Of a stretch of 64,000 nucleotides of DNA, positions 1-16,086 are shown one piece after another. The stretch comes from Bacilli bacterium (GTDB lineage: Bacteria > Bacillota_I > Bacilli_A > ML615J-28 > CAG-698). The position numbers were made by a program, and so were the translations under genes. The stretch covers positions 5,359 to 69,358 of the forward strand of contig CAKJYW010000003.1 in NCBI GenBank assembly GCA_918272565.1, given 5' to 3'. The notes below the pieces were generated by a model. It searched no databases. It was not told where the DNA came from and was given only the letters and a program-made list of their open reading frames with translations. The stretch's first letter is position 1; each line of letters begins with the position of its first letter.

Positions 1-380
1 ATTACATTCTTATCAGATAATCCAAGTAGAGCTAGATTTATTGAATATAAACCTGTCATCGTTATGATACCTGATAGAATCATTGGAATTTTAAGTTTTG
101 TATGAAGTAAACCAGTAACAATTCCTCCTAAGGCACCAGCAACGCATGCAATTAATGTTGCTAAGATTGCAGGAACATTATAATAAATCAAAATACCTGC
201 AACACATGCACCCAAAGGAAATATACCTTCAATACTTAAATCAGCCGCATCTAATATACGATAAGAGATATGCACACCTAGTGTCATGATAGCCATTATT
301 AGGCCAATCTTGACTCCAGTAAGTGCTAAGTCAGCAATATTAACTGCTAAGAAAATATTGATTGACTCTAAGATTTGCAT
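1..380 (-). CDS. ABC transporter permease (5' part only; runs off the window)
   Basis: ATG at 380 overlaps the TAA of the upstream binding-protein gene (TAATG). Hydrophobic translation MQILESINIFLAVNIADLALTGVKIGLIMAIMTLGVHISYRILDAADLSIEGIFPLGA carries the DLS/TxEG motif typical of this permease family. Confidence 0.85.
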   Translation of the reverse strand, partial: MQILESINIFLAVNIADLALTGVKIGLIMAIMTLGVHISYRILDAADLSIEGIFPLGACVAGILIYYNVPAILATLIACVAGALGGIVTGLLHTKLKIPMILSGIITMTGLYSINLALLGLSDKNV

Positions 381-1360
381 TATTTCTTAGCCTTTGCCTT
401 TACAGTTTCAGGAATTGCTAAATCAAATTCTTCTACAGTTTCGAAGTTAACTTTGTAATCAGTGCTTGTGAAGTATTGAACGCTCATCTTAGAGATATCG
501 CCACCGTTAAGAACGTCAGCACCCATCTTACCAGTCATCTTACCTAATTCTAAGTAATTAACACTACCAACAGTGATTGTTCCACCATCATTTACTTGTC
601 CTTCTTCACCGCAGATTGTAATAACCTTAGCTTGATTACAAAGTGATGCAAGTAATGCCATTTGACTAGCTACATCATTATCTGTTGGAACGTATAATGC
701 ATCAATACCAGCACTAATTAAGCTTTTAACTACTTGTTCTAGGTCAGTTGAATTGGTACATGCCTTATCAACGATTTCAACACCGATTGATCTAGCTGCT
801 TCTTTTGCCATATTAAGTTGAATAATAGAGTTATTTTCACCAGCAGTATAAACGAAACCTAACTTTGTAGCTGCAGGGTTGATTTCTTTTAATAACTTAA
901 CTTGATCAGCAACAGGGTTAATATCACTTGTTCCACTAATGCATCCACCAGGAGTTTTAGCATCTTTAATGATGTTAGAAGCAACTGGGTCAGTTACAGC
1001 AGTAAATAATACAGGAACAGTTGATCCTTGTTTATCTAATTCATTTACTAATGCTTGAGCAACAGGAGTTGCGATTGCGAAAATCAAATCGCTCTTCTTA
1101 ACAGCAGTTTCACACATTTGAGCTAAAGTGTCAGCTTTTGCTTGAGGGTTGTAAACTGTGATTTCAACATTTTCCCCATCAACAAATCCTTGAGCTTTTA
1201 ATCCTTCGATAATACCGTCTTTAGCATTATCTAGGGCTGTTGCACTAACGTATTGGATAATAGAAATAACTTTCTTTTCTTTCTTTCCACATCCACCAAA
1301 TACAAATACACTTACTAAAACTAAGCATCCCACTAAAATTTTTCTAAATAGGTTTTTCAT
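380..1360 (-). CDS. ABC transporter substrate-binding lipoprotein, TrpX-like aromatic amino acid family (probably Tyr)
   Basis: Lipobox FGGC; motifs IATPVAQA, PVLFTAVTDPV, SGTSD, YVPTDN. Tyr-rich leader peptide upstream. Confidence 0.85.
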   Translation of the reverse strand: MKNLFRKILVGCLVLVSVFVFGGCGKKEKKVISIIQYVSATALDNAKDGIIEGLKAQGFVDGENVEITVYNPQAKADTLAQMCETAVKKSDLIFAIATPVAQALVNELDKQGSTVPVLFTAVTDPVASNIIKDAKTPGGCISGTSDINPVADQVKLLKEINPAATKLGFVYTAGENNSIIQLNMAKEAARSIGVEIVDKACTNSTDLEQVVKSLISAGIDALYVPTDNDVASQMALLASLCNQAKVITICGEEGQVNDGGTITVGSVNYLELGKMTGKMGADVLNGGDISKMSVQYFTSTDYKVNFETVEEFDLAIPETVKAKAKK

Positions 1361-1401
1361 TCTTCTTCCTCCTAATAAACCTTATAATTTTTTATAGAAT
1401 T

Positions 1402-1431
1402 AAAAAGGGCTACCGCTTTAAGCAATAGCCC
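1402..1431 (-). terminator. Attenuator terminator in the ABC operon leader
   Basis: Minus strand GGGCTATTGCT-TAA-AGCGGTAGCCC-TTTTT: 11-bp stem including G:U pairs, followed by a U-run. Confidence 0.8.
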
Positions 1432-1528
1432 ATATTCACTAGCTATTACTTAAAAACCCTATGGTGTGTAATAACTAGCGTTTATTATTAGTCTTTTCCA
1501 AGCAAAAAGGCCAAGATAATAATGTTAA

Positions 1529-1597
1529 TTAAAACACATTTTCCCTTGGATAATAAGCGTAGCTATAATATAAATAAGTTAAATTAATTACTAACAT
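1529..1597 (-). CDS. Tyr-rich leader peptide MLVINLTYLYYSYAYYPRENVF
   Basis: Hand-translated. Preceded by purine-rich AAGAAGGAAAAGGGA; 6 Tyr within 9 consecutive codons; alternative hairpins downstream. Confidence 0.75.
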   Translation of the reverse strand: MLVINLTYLYYSYAYYPRENVF

Positions 1598-1625
1598 ATA
1601 TTATTCCCTTTTCCTTCTTACGTTT

Positions 1626-1655
1626 ATTATAACAAGGTTGTTTTTTATTAATCAA
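1626..1655 (-). promoter_or_regulatory. SigA-type promoter for the leader peptide/ABC operon
   Basis: TTGATT-N18-TATAAT with extended -10 (TGtTATAAT). Confidence 0.6.
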
Positions 1656-1694
1656 TAAAAATCTAAATGTAAACGTTTTACACGTAACTTTTCT

Positions 1695-2918
1695 TTAGCA
1701 CTCAACTAGATAATAATTCTTCTTACCACGACGAATTACAATATATTTACCTTCAATGGCGGCGTCAACACCAATCATTTCATGGATATCGTTATGAACT
1801 ACACCATTGATTGTAACTCCTCCACCTTCAACAAACCTTCTAGCTTCACTCTTACTTGTAGCTGCACCAACCAAAACAAGCAAATCAACTAAATTAGTTT
1901 CGCCTTCTAGTTTAGTCTTTTCAAAATCACTAAATGCTTGTTCAATCTCTTTAGCATTAAGCTCATTTACTTTTCCACTAAACAATGCTTCACTAATTTT
2001 AACAGCTTCAAGATAAGCATCTTCTCCGTGAAGGAATTTAATAACTTCATGAGCCAAAGCCTTATGAGCTTCTCTTAAGTGAGGTTGTTCTAGATTCTTC
2101 TTTTCTAATTCTTCAATTTCTTCTTTAGATAAGAATGTTAAGAACTTCAAATAATCGATTACTTTAGTATCTTCAGTGTTAATGAAGAATTGATACATCT
2201 CATATGGAGATGTCTTTTCACTATCTAACCAAATAGCTTTTCCATTAGTCTTACCAAACTTTGTTCCATCGCTCTTTGTAAGTAGTGGCATAGTAAATGC
2301 ATAAGCTTCTTTTCCACTCTTTTTTCTAATTAGTTCAATACCAGCAGTAATATTACCCCATTGGTCTTGACCGGCAACTTGCAAAGTGACATTCTTATTC
2401 TCATTTAGCCACCAGAAGTCCATAGCTTGCATAATCATATAACTGAATTCAGTATATGTAATACCTTGATCAAGTCTACGAGCAACGATGTCTTTGCTTA
2501 ACATATAGTTAATATTAAAGAACTTTCCAAAATCACGTAAGAAATCAATGAAATTTAAATCCTTGCTCCAGTCATAATTATTAACTACTTCGCATCCAAA
2601 CAAATTAGTTAATTGTTCTTTTAAACATTTAAAGTTATGTTCAACAGTTTCATACTTAACCATTGGACGTTCACTATCTGGTTTAGGATCTCCGATTAAA
2701 CCTGTTGCTCCACCAACCAAAACGATTGGATTATGACCTGCATCCTTTAATCTCTTACAAATTAAGAAACTTGAGAAGTGACCAATGTGAAGTGAATCAC
2801 CAGTCGGGTCAGTTCCAATATAGAAAGTCATTCCACCTTTATTTAACTTTTCTCGTAATACAGGATCAGATACATCTTTAATTAATCCTCTCCACTCTAA
2901 TTCTTCATAAATACCCAT
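1695..2918 (-). CDS. tyrS: Tyrosine--tRNA ligase
   Basis: HIGH motif, GQDQWGNI, KFGKT, C-terminal S4-like domain ending RRGKKNY. Confidence 0.97.
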   Translation of the reverse strand: MGIYEELEWRGLIKDVSDPVLREKLNKGGMTFYIGTDPTGDSLHIGHFSSFLICKRLKDAGHNPIVLVGGATGLIGDPKPDSERPMVKYETVEHNFKCLKEQLTNLFGCEVVNNYDWSKDLNFIDFLRDFGKFFNINYMLSKDIVARRLDQGITYTEFSYMIMQAMDFWWLNENKNVTLQVAGQDQWGNITAGIELIRKKSGKEAYAFTMPLLTKSDGTKFGKTNGKAIWLDSEKTSPYEMYQFFINTEDTKVIDYLKFLTFLSKEEIEELEKKNLEQPHLREAHKALAHEVIKFLHGEDAYLEAVKISEALFSGKVNELNAKEIEQAFSDFEKTKLEGETNLVDLLVLVGAATSKSEARRFVEGGGVTINGVVHNDIHEMIGVDAAIEGKYIVIRRGKKNYYLVEC

Positions 2919-2944
2919 TTATATATCCTCCATTTCTTATAAAC

Positions 2945-3140
2945 AAAAAAGTCCTTAGATATAAATCTAAGGACGAAAATTTTATTTCGCGGTACCACCT
3001 TAGTTAAAACAAAGCAATGTTTGTTTTCACTTCATTAGTAAACAGCTCCTAAGTGTAATTCTAAAATATCATTGCTTTAGTTTCACCAACCCTAAAGTCT
3101 CTTTCATTCAATTAATATTTTATACTTCTTCTTATTCAAC
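2945..3140 (-). ncRNA. T-box riboswitch (Tyr specifier)
   Basis: T-box AGGTGGTACCGCG at 2988-3000; AGAGA and GGTGAA stem I elements; GAAT-TAC-AC specifier; terminator GTCCTTAGAT-TTAT-ATCTAAGGAC-TTTTTT. Confidence 0.92.
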
Positions 3141-3142
3141 GC

Positions 3143-4135
3143 CTATTTAGTTGATTCTCTCCAACAAATGTCATAAGCAAGTAATATCTTATTTGCTTTT
3201 CTATGATTAGCATTTTCATCTTTCATTAATTCTGTTAAATAACTCATAGCTTTATTACCCATTTCATAAATAGGAATTTCAGCACAAGTTAGTTTAGGAT
3301 TAGAAAGTAATGCATATCTTGTGTTTTGGAATCCAATTACTTGTAACATGTCAGGAACTTTAATTCCTTTTTTATTTGCTACATTCATAAGTGAAATTGC
3401 CATAGAGTCACGAACAACTAAAGCAACTTCTGGTTTGTTATTATCTAAATAATTAGAGAAGAACACTTCATTTTTGTCAATGTTGCCACTTGAGTAGATA
3501 ACTTCAGCCTCAAGTCCAGCTTCAGCCATTGCTCGTTTATATCCACGTTCTTTCATTTCATTTAGTGTATATTTATGTTCTGTTCCAACAAACACGATTT
3601 TCTTATTTCCACGACTAATCATTTCTTTTGTGATTGAATATGAACAATCTTCATAATCTACACATACACTACCAATAGTGTCTTTTTGACTTAATGAGTT
3701 AACAAACACAACAGGAACTGGAGTGTATTCAACTTGACGATAAGTCTCTTTAGTCATTTCATCATTCATAAATAAAATCCCATCTACGCTTGATGCAATT
3801 ACTTCTCCCCACAAATCTTCTTGAAGAAGTTGATTCTTATTTATAAATAATCTAATAGTATATCCATATTTTTTTGCGGCATCGTCGATTCCTTGAATCA
3901 TTTCGGCAACACTGGCACGTGAAAGTTCAGGAATAACAACAGCAACGGTTGTAGATTTACGACTTGCAAGACCACGTGCATTAGCGTTAGGTTTATAGCC
4001 TTTATCTTTGATTATCTTTAAAACTCTATTTCTTGTAGCTTCTTTTACTTTCTCAGGATGATTAAGTACTCTAGAAACTGTAGCTAGGCTAACACCAGCT
4101 GCTCCAGCAATATCATATATCTTAGTTTGATTCAT
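3143..4135 (-). CDS. ccpA: LacI-family regulator, CcpA-like
   Basis: N-terminal IYDIAGAAGVSLATVSRVLN and PNANARGLASRKSTTVAVVIP, close to CcpA. Confidence 0.75.
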   Translation of the reverse strand: MNQTKIYDIAGAAGVSLATVSRVLNHPEKVKEATRNRVLKIIKDKGYKPNANARGLASRKSTTVAVVIPELSRASVAEMIQGIDDAAKKYGYTIRLFINKNQLLQEDLWGEVIASSVDGILFMNDEMTKETYRQVEYTPVPVVFVNSLSQKDTIGSVCVDYEDCSYSITKEMISRGNKKIVFVGTEHKYTLNEMKERGYKRAMAEAGLEAEVIYSSGNIDKNEVFFSNYLDNNKPEVALVVRDSMAISLMNVANKKGIKVPDMLQVIGFQNTRYALLSNPKLTCAEIPIYEMGNKAMSYLTELMKDENANHRKANKILLAYDICWRESTK

Positions 4136-4216
4136 ATGCTTTCCTTCCTTTCATATTATTATTCTATCACACCCTATGAAAATTTGCAACAAATTTATGA
4201 AAACAAAGCAGAAAAT

Positions 4217-4249
4217 AAAAAGGGATATACATTTAAGTATATCCTCTTT
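4217..4249 (-). terminator. Intrinsic terminator after rplS
   Basis: GGATATAC/GTATATCC stem flanked by A/T runs. Confidence 0.7.
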
Positions 4250-4261
4250 ATCGATTTTAAG

Positions 4262-4609
4262 TTATCTACGTTCTTTAATACGAGCTGCCTTAGCAGATAA
4301 TCCACGAATGTAGTTAAGCTTAGCACGACGTACTTTACCTTTACGAACAACTTCAATCTTAGCAACGATAGGTGCATGGATTGGGAATGTTCTTTCAACG
4401 CCTACACCATTAGAGTTCTTTCTAACTGTGAATGTTTCGCTGATACCACTTCCGCGACGTTTAATAACTAAACCTTCAAAAATTTGAATACGATGAGTGT
4501 CACCTTCAATGATCTTTACGTGTACTTTAACAGTATCACCAGGACGAAATTCAGGAACATCACTCTTCATGTACTCACTTGTAATTTGGTTAAGTAATTG
4601 TTGACTCAT
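4262..4609 (-). CDS. rplS: 50S ribosomal protein L19
   Basis: [37 protein letters not shown]. Start MSQQ follows an AGAAGGAG RBS. Confidence 0.97.
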
Positions 4610-4627
4610 TGTTTTCACGCTCCTTCT

Positions 4628-4672
4628 TCCAATGCTCATTCTTACCCACATCTTTTTGGTAACAGCGGAGCA
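4628..4672 (-). ncRNA. Probable L19 leader RNA
   Basis: CCGCTG...ATGAGCA elements around a TTACC/GGTAA hairpin directly upstream of rplS, resembling the Firmicutes L19 leader. Confidence 0.55.
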
Positions 4673-4702
4673 ATGTGATAGGTTATTTTCATAACCTTTT
4701 AT

Positions 4703-4731
4703 ATTATACTATTTTTCTTTTAAAAATGCAA
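4703..4731 (-). promoter_or_regulatory. SigA promoter of rplS
   Basis: TTGCAT-N17-TATAAT. Confidence 0.7.
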
Positions 4732-4760
4732 TACTTTTTTTAACATCCAGCCCCTTAAAA

Positions 4761-4840
4761 AGTATGGCAAAGTATGGCAAAGTATAACAAAGTATTGCAA
4801 AGTATGGCAAAGTATGGCAAAGTATGGCAAAGTATTGCAA
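4761..4840. repeat. Tandem array of 8 x 10 bp (AGTATGGCAA and variants)
   Basis: 5 copies of AGTATGGCAA, 2 of AGTATTGCAA and 1 of AGTATAACAA, contiguous. Confidence 0.97.
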
Positions 4841-4859
4841 ATTTTTAAGCTTTACCATT

Positions 4860-4935
4860 AAAATAATCTCACATTTCTGTGAGATTATTTGTTTTTCCCG
4901 TCTAATTCTTTTAATAATTTACTACTTATTTTTAA
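4860..4935 (-). repeat. Decayed direct-repeat copy of the trmD 3' end plus its hairpin
   Basis: The 30-bp palindrome AAATAATCTCAC-ATTTCT-GTGAGATTATTT is identical to 7852-7881. Adjacent sequence translates SKLLKELDGKNK*, versus SKLLKELEEENK* in TrmD. Confidence 0.9.
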
Positions 4936-4970
4936 TTATATCTCTTTTTCTTATTATTATTTTTGACAGT

Positions 4971-6341
4971 TTATTCTTGTGGAATTAAAAATAAAAGGTG
5001 TTTTGTCCCATTAATATGACCACATTTTGAGCAAACTTGATTTCCTCCGCTATAAACATAAGTATGTTGCTCTAAACCAACATAATCACATTTAGAGCAA
5101 TAAACAGAGTGAGATGTGTTGTTTAGAGAATTATATGACGCACTTGTGTGTGTTATAAGTTTTCTCCCACATGGGCACATACTTCCAGAGCATTTATTTG
5201 ACCCTGACCCTATTTGACAAGTGTAATTATCTGAATGAACATGCGAAGCACTTATATCAAAATAGTGGGCTACAGCATAGTAATACGGATTTATAGCCGA
5301 ATGGCAGTAGCCATTCCATCCAAAATGAGCAATAATGTCATTGTTTTCGTATCCATATACGACAACACTGTGCCCGTCTATTAATTCATCAAAATCATAA
5401 ATTCCAACTATTAATGGATAGCCAGCATCTATTGCATCTTTGCAAAATTTAGTTTTATTAACGTATAAATAAGATGCAGTAGTTACGCTTACAGATATAT
5501 TATATAAATCATCAAAGTAATCTTCAACGAAATTATCAATTTGGAAATAGTCTAGAACGCATTCATTATATGCTGTGTAACCAGCACCTCTTCCAAGATT
5601 TATTAAATATGAATGAAAATCATCATCTATCCCTGGTGAAATATCATAAGAAGACGTATCAAGTGAATAATAGTCGCTAAACACTTCACTATAACCTCTA
5701 TCATAATAATCATTAATTATATTGTCATTTAGAAACGTATCATAATAAGATAGAAGAATACCAACTGCGACATATGAACACGATTCAGCATAAGGATAAC
5801 CATTTGTGCCATAAAAAGTTGTGTCATTTTCAAAATAATATGCATCAGGAACATAGTTTGTGCTTCTAGTATTAGGTTGGTTTTTTTCTACATTTTTGCT
5901 TTGCAAAAATATTTCCTTGATTTCCGTTTCTTTTTCTATCAGACATTCTATAACTTCTTGATCTAATTCTTTATTACTAATTAAATCCTTAATAATGCCA
6001 TTGGTTTTATAAAAATAGTATGTTGGTCCTAAATAAAATTTCTCTTGAAATTCCACTTGACCATATGGATGACAGTCCTCTTTTGAATATTCAGTATATT
6101 CATTTGTATACAAATCATATATCAAATAACAATTGTTCCCTTTTACAAGAACATATCTTTCATTTCCACTGAGATCTTTTAAAAATTCATAATCAAACTC
6201 TTCAATTTGTAATTTAATTGCAACAGTTTCATATCAATCGCTTGGTAAATTGTCACTTCCCTCTGCTTTTGCTACTACAAATCCATAGCAATCAAACAAT
6301 AAAGCTAGTATACAAATGAAGAACAATCTTTTAATATGCAT
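4971..6341 (-). pseudogene. Secreted papain-like (C10/C39-like) cysteine peptidase gene interrupted by one in-frame TGA
   Basis: ATG at 6341 lies right after the upstream stop, encodes a signal peptide and is in frame with ORF 4971-6125. TGA at 6234-6236. Catalytic-like SCSYVAVGILL and GHSVVVYGY...HFGW; Cys/His-rich C-terminus. Confidence 0.65.
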
Positions 6342-6342
6342 A

Positions 6343-7269
6343 TTATCCTATCCCTTTCTTTTGATTTTCGTATTCTTTTATTCCCTCTTCATCAATGTAG
6401 CAAGTCTTACTTTTTCGTACTCCAAATTCACTTTCATCACCATAATAATATCCATATCTAAACAAACAATTAACATCAGCCTCCATTTCTTTTATATCAT
6501 ATTCTTCTTGAGTCCTTGCATAACCTATTTTCATATAAGAAATATCAACTAATATAGTCCCATAATATGAACCATAAATACCATCATAATCGGTGATTAT
6601 ATTTTCTATTTCCATACTTGAAACATTGTTTTGTTTCATCCAATCTTCCATATAATCCCGTATTGACTGAAGAGAGAAAGATAAATTGCTTTCAAATATA
6701 AATATTTTTTTACCTTTATATAAAATGGATGGGTCAAACCACTTTTTTATTTTACTTACTTTCACCGCATCATAGACAGGATAGCATACAATATATACCT
6801 CATCTTTACCATTTTTGATTCCTAAAGATATACTAAATCCAACATCATTGTATAAATCGTTTTGCTTTATTTCTTGTTCATACAATTTTAATTCTTCTTT
6901 ATCTTCATCTGATATAATATCTGTTTTATATAACATATTAATCTTTCCTAGACCTTTTTGCCTTGGCCCACAAGCAATAATAGTATCAAAATATTCGTAA
7001 TACTCTATCAAGTTATTATTATATATATTGTGATTTGGTGTATATTCACCTGTTTTATTCAAAGCTATTGAAGCACCTACAAATGATATTATTAATAACA
7101 TAGTATATATTATGGCACTTAACACTATTTTCTTTTTCTTCAAATTTATGAAACCATTCGAATCATAATCATCTATACCATTTGCAATATTTGATTTGAT
7201 AATTGATTTTATCTTTTCATATTCACAAATATAATAATTTTTATCGTTAATATATTTAATAATATCCAC
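6343..7269 (-). CDS. Single-pass membrane protein, putative anti-sigma factor
   Basis: Short N-terminal segment, KKKK plus one TM helix, large extracytoplasmic domain. Start overlaps the sigma gene stop. Confidence 0.5.
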   Translation of the reverse strand: MDIIKYINDKNYYICEYEKIKSIIKSNIANGIDDYDSNGFINLKKKKIVLSAIIYTMLLIISFVGASIALNKTGEYTPNHNIYNNNLIEYYEYFDTIIACGPRQKGLGKINMLYKTDIISDEDKEELKLYEQEIKQNDLYNDVGFSISLGIKNGKDEVYIVCYPVYDAVKVSKIKKWFDPSILYKGKKIFIFESNLSFSLQSIRDYMEDWMKQNNVSSMEIENIITDYDGIYGSYYGTILVDISYMKIGYARTQEEYDIKEMEADVNCLFRYGYYYGDESEFGVRKSKTCYIDEEGIKEYENQKKGIG

Positions 7270-7793
7270 TATCTCACCACCCCTTGAAATTTCTTTATCG
7301 CCCTTTGATAAATCGAGCTTGTTGTTGATATAGGTAGATGATATTTTTCCGCAATCTCCTTAAATGAATAATCATAGACAGCATGTAGTAAAATAATATT
7401 AATTTCTTTCGAATTCAATACTCTTTCCATATCATGTATCAAATCATAATATCCTCTATCGCTTTCTATTTGAGCGTCTTTCTTTATGTATTCATCATCG
7501 TATACTATATCAACATCACTATCCTTCTTTTTAATGAAGTTAATAGTCTCATTTTTAGCAATCTTAACAAGATATCCTTTTATGTTAGTTATATCTTTAT
7601 CAATGAAGACACTAGAAAATTTAATGAAACAGTCATCAATCAAATCTTCAACATCTTCCTTTCTTGATACATACTTACTAATAATATACCCAACAAGTCC
7701 CGAGTATTCATTGTAAATCTCATTAAAAATGCTTTCTAATTTTTCAACATTCCTCTTTTTCTTTGCATGCAAAAGTCTTTCTTCTAGGGTCAT
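7269..7793 (-). CDS. ECF-type RNA polymerase sigma factor
   Basis: Region 2 (DVEDLIDDCFIK...YLVKIAKN) and region 4 HTH (YSFKEIAEKYHLPISTT). GGAGGAG RBS before ATG 7793. Confidence 0.85.
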   Translation of the reverse strand: MTLEERLLHAKKKRNVEKLESIFNEIYNEYSGLVGYIISKYVSRKEDVEDLIDDCFIKFSSVFIDKDITNIKGYLVKIAKNETINFIKKKDSDVDIVYDDEYIKKDAQIESDRGYYDLIHDMERVLNSKEINIILLHAVYDYSFKEIAEKYHLPISTTSSIYQRAIKKFQGVVR

Positions 7794-7851
7794 ATATAAC
7801 TCCTCCAATAATATAGACAACTTTTTTGTATTTTTTTACGCATTAATACTA

Positions 7852-7881
7852 AAATAATCTCACATTTCTGTGAGATTATTT
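7852..7881. terminator. Hairpin overlapping the trmD stop
   Basis: 12-bp perfect inverted repeat with T-runs on both strands. Confidence 0.7.
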
Positions 7882-8604
7882 GTTTTCCTCTTCTAACTCT
7901 TTTAGTAATTTGCTGTCTTCTTTTGATAATTCCTTACCTATAAGTAAATCATGACGATATTTTTTAGTTAATCTTAGTGATTCTTTTCTTCTATATTTCC
8001 TTATATTTTCATGGTGCCCATTAACTAAGACACTTGGAACTTCGTGCCCTTCAAATTCTACAGGTCGAGTATATTGAGGATATTCAAGCAAATCACTAGA
8101 GAAGCTCTCGTCAACTGTTGATTCGCTGTTACCTAAAACATTAGGAATTAGCCTAATAATACTATCATAGATTGCTAGTGCCGCAATCTCTCCACCAGTT
8201 AAGATGTAATCACCAATTGATATTCCTTCATCTACATAATTCATTATACGATAATCTATTCCTTCATAGTGGCCACATATAATAATCAAGTGATCAATTT
8301 TGCTTAATTCTACTGCTTTCTTTTGATTATAAGTCTTAGCTTGTGCTGTAGTAATAACTTTATATGCTTTCTCATATCCAGGAATTGATCTTAAACAATC
8401 AACAACAGGTTGAACTTCGATTATCATTCCTGCTCCACCACCATAAGAATAATCATCTACTCGCTTATTTCCTTTTCTTGAAAACTCACGATAGTCATGA
8501 ATATAAACTTCAAACAACTTATTTTCTAGCGCTCTTTTAGATATTGATGAATTAATCACTCCATCAAACATCTCAGGGAATAATGTTAATATATCTATTC
8601 TCAT
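7876..8604 (-). CDS. trmD: tRNA (guanine37-N1)-methyltransferase
   Basis: MRIDILTLFPE, YGGGAGM, CGHYEGID, SIGDYILTGGE, LEYPQYTRP. Confidence 0.98.
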   Translation of the reverse strand: MRIDILTLFPEMFDGVINSSISKRALENKLFEVYIHDYREFSRKGNKRVDDYSYGGGAGMIIEVQPVVDCLRSIPGYEKAYKVITTAQAKTYNQKKAVELSKIDHLIIICGHYEGIDYRIMNYVDEGISIGDYILTGGEIAALAIYDSIIRLIPNVLGNSESTVDESFSSDLLEYPQYTRPVEFEGHEVPSVLVNGHHENIRKYRRKESLRLTKKYRHDLLIGKELSKEDSKLLKELEEENK

Positions 8605-14391: not shown

Positions 14392-16086
14392 ATGAATAAC
14401 AAAACAATCGAACAACCTATTATCGACCATTTCAAAGATTCTAATATCAAAATAATGGCTTTAGGTGGTTTAGGTGAAGTAGGTAAAAATATGTACCTAA
14501 TCGAATGTAGCGATGAAATAGTAATCGTTGACTGTGGTATGCTTTTTCCTGATAACAATTACGGCATCGAATATATCGTTCCTGACTTCACTTATTTAAA
14601 AGAAAACGAAGATAAAATAATCGGTCTTTTTATAACTCATGGTCACGAGGACCACATTGGGGGAATCCCTGAATTAATCAAAAACGTCAAAATCAATAAT
14701 ATTTATGCTAGTAGGTTGGCTTTCTATCTAATAAAAGAAAAGATAAGCGACTTAACAAACAAGTCAACTAACCTAATTGAGTACGAGGACTCATCAATCT
14801 ATACCTTTAAAAATTTTGAAATATCTTTCTTTAGAACAAACCATTCAATTCCTGATTCTTTTGGAATTGCGATTAAAACTCGTCTTGGATATATCATCCA
14901 TACAGGAGACTTTAAGATTGATTTAACTCCAATAGCAAATCATACTGATTTTGAAAAACTAGCAAGCTACGCTAAAAGTGGTGTATTATGCTTATTAAGT
15001 GACTCCACAAACGCTAACGTTCCTCGTTTCACGCAATCAGAGCGCCGTGCCGGAGATAGTATAAAGAGCATCTTTTCAACAATCACTGGACGTATCATCA
15101 TTTCAACATTCGCATCTAACGTTTATAGAGTAAAACAGATTGTGGAAGCGAGCGTAGAGACTGGTAGAAAAGTTGTTGTGTTTGGTCGTTCTATGGAAAA
15201 ATGCTTAGATATAGCTCAAAGACTCAATTACATCACTCCGCCTAAAGGAACTTTAATATCAATCAAAGATATGGAATTTGTTAATCCTAATAAATTAACA
15301 ATTATTTCAACAGGTTCCCAAGGAGAGCCCCTTGCGGCACTAAGTAGAATGGCTGATGGCACTCACAAATATGTTAAGATTACGGAAAATGATACAATCA
15401 TCTTCTCATCTAGTGCTATTCCTGGTAACCAAGATAGTATTAATAAGACTATTAATAAATTATATCGCTCTAAAGCTACTGTTATTGTTAATAGTCCTCT
15501 AACAGAAACTCACACTTCAGGCCATGGTGGAGAAACCGAGCTTGAATTAATGGTTGCCCTAACTAAGCCAAGATATTTTGTTCCTATACATGGTGAATAT
15601 GCAATGCTTAAGCGTCACAAGGAACTAGCAATTTTAGCTGGTGTAGCTGAAGAGAACTGCTTCATCTTACAAAATGGCGATGTTCTAACATTCCACCATG
15701 ATATGGTATTCCAAAACTATCGAGTAAAAAGCGGTAATAGTTACATCGACTCTAATAATGTTGAAGTAAGTGGATCAATTATCAAAGAACGTAGGCTCAT
15801 GAGTGAAGATGGTGTTGTGACTCTAACTTTCTTAGTTAACAATAAGAAAGAATTAGTTAGTACTATCAACTTCTCATCTCGAGGCTTCATCTTTATGAAA
15901 GAATCTTTTGAACTAATATCAAAAATTAAGAAAAAGGCTAAAGATATCTATGTAGACTATATCGCAAGAAACCCAGATGGCTCGCTGCAACTAGCAGAAA
16001 ATATCTTAATTTATGAAGTAGGTCAATTCATTCAAACACAAACCAACCGTAAACCTATTATCGTCCCAACAATCCTCGAGGTGTAA
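14392..16086 (+). CDS. rnj: Ribonuclease J
   Basis: LGGLGEVGKNM, THGHEDHIG, HTGDFK, TGSQGEP, HTSGH, PIHGE. Confidence 0.96.
   Translation: MNNKTIEQPIIDHFKDSNIKIMALGGLGEVGKNMYLIECSDEIVIVDCGMLFPDNNYGIEYIVPDFTYLKENEDKIIGLFITHGHEDHIGGIPELIKNVKINNIYASRLAFYLIKEKISDLTNKSTNLIEYEDSSIYTFKNFEISFFRTNHSIPDSFGIAIKTRLGYIIHTGDFKIDLTPIANHTDFEKLASYAKSGVLCLLSDSTNANVPRFTQSERRAGDSIKSIFSTITGRIIISTFASNVYRVKQIVEASVETGRKVVVFGRSMEKCLDIAQRLNYITPPKGTLISIKDMEFVNPNKLTIISTGSQGEPLAALSRMADGTHKYVKITENDTIIFSSSAIPGNQDSINKTINKLYRSKATVIVNSPLTETHTSGHGGETELELMVALTKPRYFVPIHGEYAMLKRHKELAILAGVAEENCFILQNGDVLTFHHDMVFQNYRVKSGNSYIDSNNVEVSGSIIKERRLMSEDGVVTLTFLVNNKKELVSTINFSSRGFIFMKESFELISKIKKKAKDIYVDYIARNPDGSLQLAENILIYEVGQFIQTQTNRKPIIVPTILEV

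Follow-up and report, generated by a model that had tools for sequence, protein, structure and literature searches.

The leader and its surroundings

The window analysed here is a stretch of 64,000 nucleotides from the genome of an uncultured member of the Bacilli, and all features described below lie on its minus strand. Close to the start of the window a leader sits between tyrS, the gene of tyrosine-tRNA ligase (1695..2918), and the genes of a three-gene ABC importer. The leader contains a promoter, a ribosome-binding site, a small upstream open reading frame (uORF), the alternative helices 1:2, 2:3 and 3:4, and a U-run. The first importer gene (380..1360) encodes a CD0873-like lipoprotein substrate-binding protein (PF04392), and the second (3..380) a permease (BPD_transp_2) that runs off the window; on the contig beyond, the full permease gene (327 aa) is followed by an ABC ATPase (265 aa). 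Directly upstream of the leader, tyrS has a T-box leader of its own (2966..3148), which scores 105.7 bits (cut-off 93) and whose specifier position, as read from the printed alignment, is UAC. The first-pass annotation of this DNA, made from the sequence alone, had placed a tyrS gene with a Tyr T-box beside the element, and this holds.

The promoter, TTGATT-18-TGtTATAAT (1626..1655), has the -35 box TTGATT, an 18-nt spacer and an extended -10 box; 10 of the 12 hexamer positions match and the TG is present. Transcription would start near 1620, about 25 nt before the uORF. The ribosome-binding site AAGGGA (1605..1610) lies 7 nt before the ATG of the predicted leader peptide MLVINLTYLYYSYAYYPRENVF, which is encoded at 1529..1597 by 22 codons plus a stop. 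Its Tyr codon run (1550..1576) reads Y-L-Y-Y-S-Y-A-Y-Y, that is six Tyr codons (5 TAT, 1 TAC) in nine. Just upstream of the -35 box there is also a cre-like palindrome, TGTAAA-ACG-TTTACA (1668..1682), possibly an operator for a CcpA/LacI-type regulator. A cre-like box within three errors of TGTAAGCGTTTTCA is found at the same place in 33 of the 52 distinct leaders described below, and within two errors in 26.

The segments that can pair follow each other from the uORF to the terminator. Segment A (CCAAGG, 1544..1549) lies within the uORF right after the Tyr run and forms the 5' arm of hairpin A:A', whose 3' arm is segment A' (UCUUGG, 1511..1516). Segment 0 (1533..1539), at the end of the uORF, overlaps the stop codon, and its partner is segment 1' (UGUGU/ACACA plus GG/CC). 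A small hairpin B:B' (CCUUUUU ... GGAAAAG, 1493..1510), its pairing judged by eye only, contains a CYTTTT that is nearly invariant among the sequences of relatives. The stretch 1463..1479 holds segment 1 (GCUAGUUAUUAC), which is extended on its 3' side by 1' (ACACACC, 1463..1469). Segment 2 (AAGUAAUAGCUAG, 1439..1451) can pair either with segment 1, as an anti-antiterminator, or with segment 3 (GGGCUAUUGCUU, 1420..1431), as an antiterminator, and segment 3 has either 2 or 4 as its partner. Segment 4 (AGCGGUAGCCC) together with U5 (1402..1417) makes up the 3' arm and tail of an intrinsic terminator.

Helix 1:2 consists of CTAGTTATTAC (within 1479..1468) paired with GTAATAGCTAG (within 1451..1439), and the antiterminator helix of AAGTAATAGC paired with GCTATTGCTT, with one G-U pair. 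The terminator GGGCTATTGCT/AGCGGTAGCCC (1431..1407) has 11 pairs, six of them G-C, and a loop of 3; it is followed by TTTTT and lies after the leader ORF and ahead of the structural gene. The antiterminator 2:3 is mutually exclusive with the terminator 3:4, while the upstream helix 1:2 pre-empts 2:3. All the elements named in the first-pass annotation, i.e. a 22-aa uORF led by a ribosome-binding site with six Tyr in nine codons, competing helices and a U-run, are thus present. It had drawn the helices as a four-segment design, however, where we find six segments, the long-range pairing having been missed.

Conservation of the leader and its significance

The genome (1.69 Mb, 31.5% GC) was scanned in all six frames for small ORFs of 12-45 aa, counted from the first ATG to the stop. 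Six Tyr in nine codons occur in exactly one of 13,566 such ORFs, the leader uORF, and six reach five. The 265-nt leader has a folding energy of -64.3 kcal/mol, compared with -48.6 +/- 4.6 in 200 shuffled sequences (z -3.4).

Among relatives, the uORF is found directly upstream in 23 of 26 loci of the binding protein, led by a Shine-Dalgarno (SD) sequence and ending in ...[FY]YYYY[FY]PR.... The covariance model R1 matches in 55 of 106 genomes of the order, once per genome (twice in G013), and it finds no second copy in the genome of the window. All 52 distinct leaders have a uORF of 18-25 codons (two copies were read by eye) preceded by an SD-like motif. Over these leaders the predicted peptides contain 24.3% Tyr, 12.0% Phe and no Trp, with a median of five Tyr per peptide, and the codon runs of relatives read YYYYY(F), FYFYFYY, YFYFYFF and similar. 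All 52 copies keep the SD, the ATG, the frame and the placement of the stop; the N-terminal codons vary freely, and the run itself tolerates exchanges of TAT with TAC and of TTT with TTC. The first-pass annotation had named the lack of a conserved Tyr-rich uORF in relatives as a result that would refute it, and the outcome is in its favour.

The Tyr content does not have to be asked for to be found. A pattern written without Tyr codons and run against a contig collection gave at least 119 stretches, mostly chance matches in unrelated phyla. Among the matches listed, the 17 with the full downstream architecture all have a Tyr/Phe-rich uORF, and none without it has more than three Y/F in the last 10 codons. 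At the level of the class, a pattern search matches 20 of 401 genomes, 19 from the same order plus G130, and the reversed-pattern control gives 0 matches; on a smaller class sample the model matches 5 of 61 genomes, four of the same order (G000 included) and again G130.

A simpler reading is that the uORF is a chance ORF in AT-rich DNA in front of an ordinary tyrS terminator, and TAT is indeed frequent in such DNA. Yet only one small ORF in 13,566 has this Tyr density, a promoter of its own, located after the tyrS gene, serves the leader, and the uORF is kept across two families and beyond, with other upstream neighbours. We give this reading next to no probability: the conservation data rule it out.

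The leader sequence also turns up in the bovine gut metatranscriptome, where four runs have small shares of it. Two contigs, each from a different study, fall entirely within the leader, at 1368-1527 (one other letter) and 1375-1602 (none); as these contigs carry no ends, strand, level or conditions, they attest no more than the presence of the stretch in RNA libraries, and uncovered parts carry no information.

Covariation and long-range pairing

The terminating fold is well supported by the alignment. In it 96.1% of the cells are paired and 11 of 23 pairs show a compensatory change, a value that none of 500 shuffles reaches; the proposal that relatives might show compensatory stem changes is therefore borne out. 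Helix 1:2 is paired in 98.5% of the cells with compensatory changes in 5 of 9 pairs, and helix 3:4 in 94.3% with changes in 5 of 8. The antiterminator 2:3 is paired in 85.4% and beats its shuffles at p <= 0.05 in 51 of 52 copies. The mean duplex energies of 1:2, 2:3 and 3:4 are -12.1, -11.3 and -12.1 kcal/mol, respectively.

In the window copy the uORF stop ends at 1529 and region 1 starts at 1479, leaving a gap of about 50 nt. This gap had been raised as a caveat against ribosome control; the distance is correct, and on the sequence evidence the gap is bridged by a covarying long-range pairing 0:1', giving a six-segment relay of the his type. Since the pairing register of 0:1' shifts between subfamilies, we scored it not by column-wise pair counts but by duplex energy per sequence, against shuffles and non-cognate partners. 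The family mean is -9.98 kcal/mol with the copy's own partner and -4.90 kcal/mol with the partners of other copies. The duplex is significant against shuffles (p <= 0.05) in 39 of 52 copies and not significant in 13, and there are, by our reading, about 15 sequence types of it. The window copy (-5.4 kcal/mol, p 0.13) is among the weakest of the family.

Hairpin A:A' behaves differently. Its C-C-A-A-G/C-U-U-G-G core is present in 52 of 52 copies, two of which carry a C-to-U change that leaves a U-G pair. The five core pairs never covary, and the support for them consists of these two copies and of frame independence: CCAAG is kept in three different reading frames, as P-R (also P-S), F-Q-E and N-Q-G, which places the constraint on the RNA. 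The invariance of the core is stricter than pairing alone explains. Folded alone, with segments 2 nt short at the 3' end, hairpin A is not more stable than shuffled sequences (mean z -0.67), and in the same short segments segment 0 is paired inside it at 54% of positions (248 of 456).

Folding with a masked ribosome

The effect of a ribosome was modelled by masking its footprint at the decision point, on transcripts that end after segment 3, and scoring whether P(2:3) exceeds 0.5. Without a ribosome this is the case in 16 of 52 leaders, with an early stall in 37, with a late stall in 33 and with a ribosome at the stop in 9. For the window copy P(2:3) is 0.06 without a ribosome, 0.53 and 0.68 for the early and late stall, and 0.01 at the stop. 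Masking the Tyr run or the stop thus shifts the fold of the truncated leader in the directions that the attenuator model predicts. At full-length equilibrium the picture is another: the window terminator has P = 1.00 under every mask, and over the family it forms in 45 of 52 leaders without and 34-35 with masks, a modest shift. The attenuator model therefore depends on kinetics.

The importer and its probable substrate

The closest solved relative of the binding protein is the tyrosine binder CD0873 (E 3.6e-52). In this C. difficile protein two residues are reported to confer tyrosine specificity (PMC6816091), and the equivalents of both, Glu-263 and Tyr-279, are present in the window protein (Glu252 and Tyr269) as well as in all leader-linked binding proteins aligned. 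The alignment has 39 rows: L001-L022, L024, L028 and 16 from loci of the contig collection. According to the same report the Glu forms a hydrogen bond with the hydroxyl of Tyr, and Phe and Trp binders have Ala in its place, while Gln occupies the position linked to Trp binding (PMC6816091); there the window protein has Tyr, not Gln. The T-box-linked locus L025 has Val at the first specificity position.

The gene had at first been described as TrpX-like. The TrpX equivalog model NF041285 scores 244.6 bits, below its curated cut-off of 390, and in sequence the binding protein is closer to CD0873 than to the TrpX equivalog, so this label is not retained. Tyrosine as the predicted substrate, which had been proposed from the leader, gains independent support from the residues that set the specificity of CD0873. 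This amounts to a sequence-based substrate call for a poorly annotated family of ABC importers in uncultured rumen and gut bacteria.

Further, a single family search for prephenate dehydrogenase gave no match in the genome of the window (97.4% complete), while a control was found in 14 of 14 genomes. By this search the small-genome gut Bacilli that carry the leader appear to lack the enzyme, and may therefore depend on imported tyrosine.

Leader variants before other genes

The same scaffold is found in front of other genes. In G006 and G080 it has a Y/F uORF and precedes the aroB-aroC-aroE/K-DAHP synthase operon, which ends in the DAHP synthase gene. In a single case, G017, a scaffold with the peptide FNFYCAYCICF, containing three Cys codons, precedes cysK (TIGR01139, 407.5 bits). 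In these predicted peptides the regulatory codons track the regulated genes: Tyr with the importer, Y/F with aro and Cys with cysK. Upstream of the aro operon in the genome of the window, where the intergenic space is 94 nt, there is no such leader.

Proposed mechanism and alternatives

We consider it very probable that the leader is a ribosome-mediated transcription attenuator which responds to the charging of tRNA-Tyr, perhaps also of tRNA-Phe, and governs the genes of a tyrosine ABC importer. In this model we infer that the uORF is translated, that read-through responds to tyrosine, that the polymerase pauses, and in which order the steps follow one another. In the terminating fold, hairpin A:A' (around the end of the uORF) would coexist with hairpin 1:2 and with the terminator 3:4 and its U-run. 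In the read-through fold segments 0 and 1' would pair, leaving segment 2 free for 3, and no terminator would form. When Tyr-tRNA suffices, the ribosome would reach the stop and cover segment 0 while 1 and 2 emerge, so that helix 1:2 and then 3:4 form and transcription ends. When it is scarce, the ribosome would stall in the Tyr run and open or block A:A', leaving segment 0 free; 0:1' and then 2:3 could form, and the polymerase would read into the importer genes. Hairpin A:A' followed by CYUUUU may make the polymerase pause until the ribosome arrives, with a candidate pause position after CUUGGCCUUUUU, at about 1504.

How specific the sensing would be for tyrosine is the question on which a rival reading has most weight. 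The leader could be a general aromatic sensor, where stalling at Tyr or Phe induces an importer of both and tyrosine is not specifically assigned. In favour of this, 12% of the residues encoded by the uORFs are Phe, and in several copies Tyr and Phe take turns (FYFYFYY, YFYFYFF). The aro variants, which stand before genes of the common pathway, have this Y/F mix as well, and the aroR leader of C. glutamicum, whose peptide contains Phe-Tyr-Phe, reportedly reacts to Phe but not to Tyr (PMC11802643). On the other hand Tyr exceeds Phe 2:1, with a median of five Tyr per peptide, TTT is a common codon in DNA of 31% GC, and the Glu described as binding the Tyr hydroxyl (PMC6816091) is kept in all leader-linked binding proteins aligned. 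We hold this broader sensor to be a minority reading, with perhaps one chance in a few. The earlier claim of a Tyr-specific attenuator accordingly stands in part: the Tyr-rich run and the CD0873 residues speak for it, while the Phe codons mixed into the run leave room for sensing of Tyr and also Phe.

Two further readings replace the starved ribosome by another signal. The choice of fold could be set by a protein or small ligand on the leader RNA, at the UAU/UAC run or the CCAAG/CUUGG hairpin, with the uORF incidental. The hairpin is indeed invariant beyond the needs of pairing, and the triplet run loosely resembles the targets of repeat-binding attenuation proteins. Against this, every one of the 52 copies has the SD, the ATG, the frame and the stop in place despite a drifting N-terminal part, the run tolerates TAT/TAC and TTT/TTC exchanges, and its codons turn to Cys before cysK; further, the in-silico ribosome mask reproduces the expected switch, and a riboswitch or T-box match to Rfam is absent in the leader. 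This makes such a ligand improbable. A little more improbable still is a nascent peptide (...YYYYFPR) that arrests the ribosome on free tyrosine, in the way TnaC responds to tryptophan, and not on a shortage of charged tRNA-Tyr. A C-terminal F-P-R is frequent, but CCAAG persists as nucleotides where other frames make it read F-Q-E, N-Q-G or P-S; the peptide thus has no conserved P-R motif, and arrest by abundant tyrosine would induce the importer when it is least needed.

Within the preferred reading, the ribosome-mediated attenuator, the variants allow a tentative extension, to which we give somewhat less than an even chance: the leader would be a modular scaffold of a pause-release hairpin and a fixed GUUAUUAC/GUAAUAAC relay with a codon run that is re-targeted, mostly combined with a cre-like operator. 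The CCAAG/CUUGG hairpin and its U-run would then be a dedicated pause-release element synchronising polymerase and ribosome, with the relay fixed behind it. Evolution would swap only the codon run, giving a Tyr importer, a Tyr/Phe aro operon and a Cys cysK, and the cre-like operator upstream of -35 in most copies would join a CcpA-like carbon status to tRNA charging at one promoter. The covarying 0:1' pairing together with the Cys and aro variants could provide a natural test bed for how the position of a ribosome is relayed to a distant terminator.

Relation to known systems

The his operon leader of Salmonella and E. coli is a six-segment leader-peptide attenuator, and trpL, pheL and pheM are leaders of E. 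coli. Like these, the present leader has a short ORF with a run of the sensed codons and a choice between terminator and antiterminator, and three hairpins in relay set against two alternative helices, the arrangement of his, would let a ribosome stalled far upstream decide on the terminator. Unlike all four, it would sense Tyr (plus Phe), for which we found no such described leader, and its target would be an importer, not a biosynthetic operon or a synthetase. Its relay strand lies in the loop of the invariant CCAAG/CUUGG hairpin, and its hosts are uncultured Acholeplasmatales or 'Mollicutes'-labelled Bacilli that otherwise use T-boxes, with 11 T-box matches in the genome of the window. The mechanism is classical, and the advance is one of breadth, not of principle: leader-peptide attenuation would now also cover tyrosine as a signal and an uptake system as a target, in gut Bacilli with small genomes whose other leaders of this purpose are T-boxes.

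A scan of window positions 1..8000 with the 4,227 families of Rfam 15 (E <= 1) finds only the T-box of tyrS, at 3148..2966. There is no T-box match in 1361..1694, and none upstream of 20 orthologous loci. Nor does the leader match, at E <= 1, the Rfam amino-acid leader families (Trp, His, Leu, Thr, Phe and Leu/phe).

In the literature we found no Tyr leader-peptide account of this leader family beyond two related cases (PMC8632094, PMC11802643). The uORFC-13-1 motif is described from Acholeplasma, exclusively upstream of aroF, with a U-run that encodes one Phe or more (PMC8632094). It is likewise a candidate attenuator of the leader-peptide type for aromatic amino acids in Acholeplasma-type bacteria, and has a promoter, an RBS, a uORF and a terminator; our main family differs from that description (PMC8632094) in its many Tyr codons and in standing before the genes of an ABC importer. 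The aroR leader of C. glutamicum (Phe-Tyr-Phe), before aroF, is reported to respond to limitation for Phe and not for Tyr (PMC11802643). It shares with the window leader a Tyr-containing peptide, aromatic metabolism and ribosome stalling, but as described there (PMC11802643) it belongs to an actinobacterial biosynthetic gene and has one Tyr codon only.

Finally, importers of the COG2984/PF04392 family are reported with Tyr or Trp T-box leaders, for example S. suis trpX (PMC9382623). These T-boxes and that of tyrS resemble the present leader in the tRNA charging signal and in the terminator/antiterminator output, and the former also in the transporter family. In contrast to them, the leader has no specifier loop or T-box sequence, and its proposed sensing goes through a translating ribosome and not through direct binding of the tRNA. 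A stretch of 1.8 kb would hold two different sensors of tRNA-Tyr charging, one for tyrS and one for the tyrosine importer.

A tyrosine-rich leader between tyrS and an ABC importer

On the minus strand, tyrS (2918..1695) is preceded by a T-box (3148..2966, 105.7 bits) and followed, after a spacer of 334 nt, by the gene of a PF04392 substrate-binding lipoprotein (1360..380). Next comes a permease gene that extends past the window end (327 aa on the contig); an ABC ATPase gene (265 aa) lies beyond the permease on the contig, outside the window. In the spacer, scans placed a promoter (TTGATT-18-TGtTATAAT) at 1655..1626 and, at 1431..1407, a terminator of 11 pairs followed by TTTTT, both on the minus strand. 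Between them, the Tyr-rich ORF with a ribosome binding site claimed in the first-pass annotation is indeed present: this uORF (1597..1529, minus strand) encodes MLVINLTYLYYSYAYYPRENVF, has AAGGGA at 7-nt spacing before the start and contains 6 Tyr in 9 codons. It had been cautioned that Tyr codons could arise by chance in AT-rich DNA. However, of the 13,566 ORFs of 12-45 aa counted in all frames of the genome (31.5% GC), no other is that dense in Tyr, so the worry does not hold.

Conservation and distribution

Searching with the binding protein, a match was found in 27 of 41 related genomes, and the upstream DNA was read at 26 loci from relatives and at the paralog in the own genome. At 23 loci an SD-led uORF with a terminal Tyr/Phe run is followed by CCAAG, with a stop codon within 6-30 nt, and further 3' by CTTGG-CYTTTT, the series GTTATTAC / GTAATAAC / GTTATTAC / GTAATAAC and a T-run. 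The exceptions are L023, which has no uORF, L025, with a T-box and UGG at the specifier position, and the own paralog L029, whose T-box stays below the threshold (77.5 bits).

A covariance model was made from 24 leaders, and its E-values are rough. It has one match in the own genome and matches 55/106 genomes of its order (37/67 among those at least 90% complete), with one match per genome except for two in G013. In a sample of the class 5 of 61 genomes match: four of the own order, including the own genome, and G130 of another family. The G130 leader (L203/L224, G130:C64, about 15804-15987), the only match outside the order, has the uORF MILQFIQEQLYSYYYYNQGDVL and stands directly before permease and ATPase genes, with no binding-protein gene first. 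An IUPAC pattern that contains no Tyr codon has matches in 20/401 genomes of the class, 19 of which belong to the own order, and its reversed control in none of the 401. Over a named species collection the pattern finds at least 119 stretches. Among the matches listed, 17 have the full downstream architecture, all 17 with a Tyr/Phe-rich uORF, and in the stretches lacking it the last 10 codons contain at most 3 Y/F. The named records, MAGs that go under the labels Acholeplasmatales, Acholeplasmataceae, Mollicutes, Bacilli or Bacillota, come in many cases from animal guts, and one, an Acholeplasmatales record, has the same-genus peptide. The distribution is sampled rather than exhaustive, and related genomes are non-independent observations.

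After removal of duplicates there are 52 distinct leaders. All 52 have a uORF of 18-25 codons (50 by script, and two, with CTAAG, by eye), with an overall composition of Y 24.3%, F 12.0% and W 0. The Tyr-rich uORF is hence conserved in relatives, a comparison that the first-pass annotation had proposed together with a search for compensatory changes in the stems.

RNA structure

The three helices described earlier, 1:2 (anti-antiterminator), 2:3 (antiterminator) and 3:4 (terminator), are all present in the window, and across the 52 leaders their mean duplex energies are alike (-12.1, -11.3 and -12.1 kcal/mol). In the terminating fold, composed of 1:2, 3:4 and the CCAAG/CUUGG hairpin A:A', 96.1% of the cells are paired in a model-fitted alignment of 53 distinct rows, where the fit leans to the model structure. 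When the partners are slid, pairing is 33-53%, and none of 500 shuffles equals the fold on any measure. Compensatory, both-side changes occur in 11 of its 23 pairs. The five core pairs of A:A' show no covariation in the 53-row alignment; a C-to-U change gives U-G in two copies. CCAAG is read as P-R, F-Q-E, P-S or N-Q-G, that is, it is kept whatever peptide it encodes, indicating a constraint on the RNA and not on the peptide. The antiterminator is paired to 85.4% over 11 pairs, the first nine almost always, and is better than shuffles in 51/52 single sequences.

A gap of about 50 nt between the uORF stop and the first helix had been raised as a caveat. The gap exists, but across the family it can be bridged by a long-range pairing, 0:1', between the bases after CCAAG (the last uORF codons and the stop) and those that directly follow segment 1. 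Subfamilies differ in sequence here but keep the complementarity, as in GAUAUCUUGUAA with UUACAAGAUAUC, AUCGUGUAA with UUACACGAU and GGAUGUCAUGU with ACAUGACAUCU. The mean duplex energy is -9.98 kcal/mol with the own partner versus -4.90 with the partners of other copies, and p <= 0.05 against 300 shuffles in 39/52. In the window copy the bridge is weak (UGUGU with ACACA and GG with CC, -5.4 kcal/mol, p 0.13). The his leader is a six-segment relay and trp a four-segment design; the complementarity across the gap points to the former, so that the Tyr leader resembles his and not trp.

Ribosome masking in silico

Folding with and without a masking ribosome, also proposed in the first-pass annotation, gave the expected shift when transcripts were cut after segment 3, the decision point. 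P(2:3) exceeds 0.5 in 16/52 leaders with no ribosome (window copy 0.06), in 37/52 with a stall early in the Tyr run (0.53), in 33/52 with a late stall (0.68) and in 9/52 with the ribosome at the stop codon (0.01). Full-length RNA folded to equilibrium shows a smaller shift: in the same four states the terminator exceeds P = 0.5 in 45/52, 34/52, 35/52 and 45/52, respectively, and in the window copy masking has no effect on it. Given this small effect, absent in the window, the switch would in these models have to be kinetic, as in classical attenuators.

Regulated genes, mechanism and alternatives

A binding-protein gene follows 49 of the 52 distinct leaders, aro genes follow two and cysK one. 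The aro-linked scaffolds, in G006 (L182, G006:C3, 3973-4168, minus strand) and G080 (L183, G080:C107, 251-449), have the Tyr/Phe uORFs MNIINNIINNMFYYYYFNPRKSRV and MSVTMNMFYFYDYFNPRKGRV. The G006 operon contains aroB (3-dehydroquinate synthase), aroC (chorismate synthase), an aroE/aroK (shikimate dehydrogenase/kinase) fusion and DAHP synthase; in G080 aroB and aroC are confirmed by Pfam, up to the locus end. In G017 the scaffold (L181, G017:C7, 282-501) carries the uORF MININKSFNFYCAYCICFPRKLVS with three Cys codons (FNFYCAYCICF), before a 33-codon ORF and cysK (741-1664; TIGR01139, 407.5 bits, cut-off 350.95). In these leaders the regulatory codons match the genes downstream, Tyr/Phe before aro and Cys before cysK, the apparent switch to cysteine being seen in G017 alone.

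The leader is best explained by ribosome-mediated attenuation of the classical kind, which would sense tRNA-Tyr through the relay A:A'/0:1'/1:2/2:3/3:4. A Tyr-specific ribosome-mediated attenuator had been put forward in the first-pass annotation, and the uORF conserved in 52/52, the competing helices and the predicted masking shift argue for it. Hairpin A and its U-run could serve RNA polymerase pausing. With SD, start, frame and stop position conserved, the codons swapped and CCAAG independent of the frame, a switch on the leader operated by a protein or ligand, an arrest peptide of the TnaC kind and a chance ORF are all disfavoured. Within ribosome-mediated attenuation, it is possible that the importer operon is induced by Phe limitation too.

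The leader has no match in Rfam 15 at E <= 1, and in the literature on Tyr-codon leader peptides we found no description of this element. Closest in the literature are the candidate uORFC-13-1 (Phe, aroF, Acholeplasma; PMC8632094) and the C. glutamicum aroR leader, said in a review not to respond to Tyr (PMC11802643). As described, uORFC-13-1 is linked to Phe and aroF, whereas the window leader is Tyr-rich and precedes an ABC importer; the aro-linked scaffold of G006 and G080 may be related to it.

Substrate and tyrosine supply

Among solved relatives, C. difficile CD0873 is closest to the window binding protein (E 3.6e-52); 3LKV, which binds Phe, and 3LFT, which binds Trp, rank below it. CD0873 is described with tyrosine bound and a thermal shift with tyrosine only; its Glu-263, replaced by Ala in 3LKV and 3LFT, makes a bond to the hydroxyl of Tyr, and its Tyr-279 is Gln in the Trp binder (PMC6816091). 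In the window protein these columns hold Glu252 and Tyr269, consistent with the tyrosine substrate proposed in the first-pass annotation. Every aligned leader-linked binding protein has Glu and Tyr there, and the T-box-linked L025 protein has Val at the first position. The NCBIfam TrpX model gives the window protein 244.6 bits, below the cut-off of 390. The paralogous PF04392 binding protein (L029, G000:C31, 1501-2352, 37% identity) has its T-box at about 1167-1378; with the specifier UGG, read by eye, it would serve Trp import, next to the importer for Tyr.

Outside the window, the own genome, which is 97.4% complete, contains an aro operon (G000:C14:6869-12769) with no such leader upstream; by its N-terminal sequence a small divergent gene near it looks like chorismate mutase. 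Prephenate dehydrogenase (PDH_N, PF02153) has no match in this genome, with the control positive in 14/14 genomes. The result hints at a need to import tyrosine, and the organism may be a tyrosine auxotroph.

A possible second input and neighbouring genes

Just upstream of the -35 box lies a cre-like palindrome, TGTAAA-ACG-TTTACA (1668-1682, minus strand). A box in the same place (TGTAAGCGTTTTCA-like in other loci) departs from the consensus by at most 3 errors in 33/52 leaders and by at most 2 in 26/52, in every case 127-172 nt before CCAAG. The box points to a LacI/CcpA-type regulator as a second input, and its candidate partner is a CcpA-like gene of the LacI family that lies 5' of the T-box of tyrS (4135..3143, minus strand; top model ccpA, 257.9 bits, under the cut-off of 442).

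About 2.4 kb past the importer operon, just outside the window, another class-I W/Y tRNA synthetase is encoded (L150, G000:C3, 1550-2548, 332 aa), with its own T-box (1267-1503, 106.1 bits); two genes for aromatic aminoacyl-tRNA synthetases thus lie in the neighbourhood of the putative tyrosine importer. Finally, two short bovine gut metatranscriptome contigs from two studies, which carry no strand or ends, are fully contained in the leader (1368-1602) at 99-100% identity.
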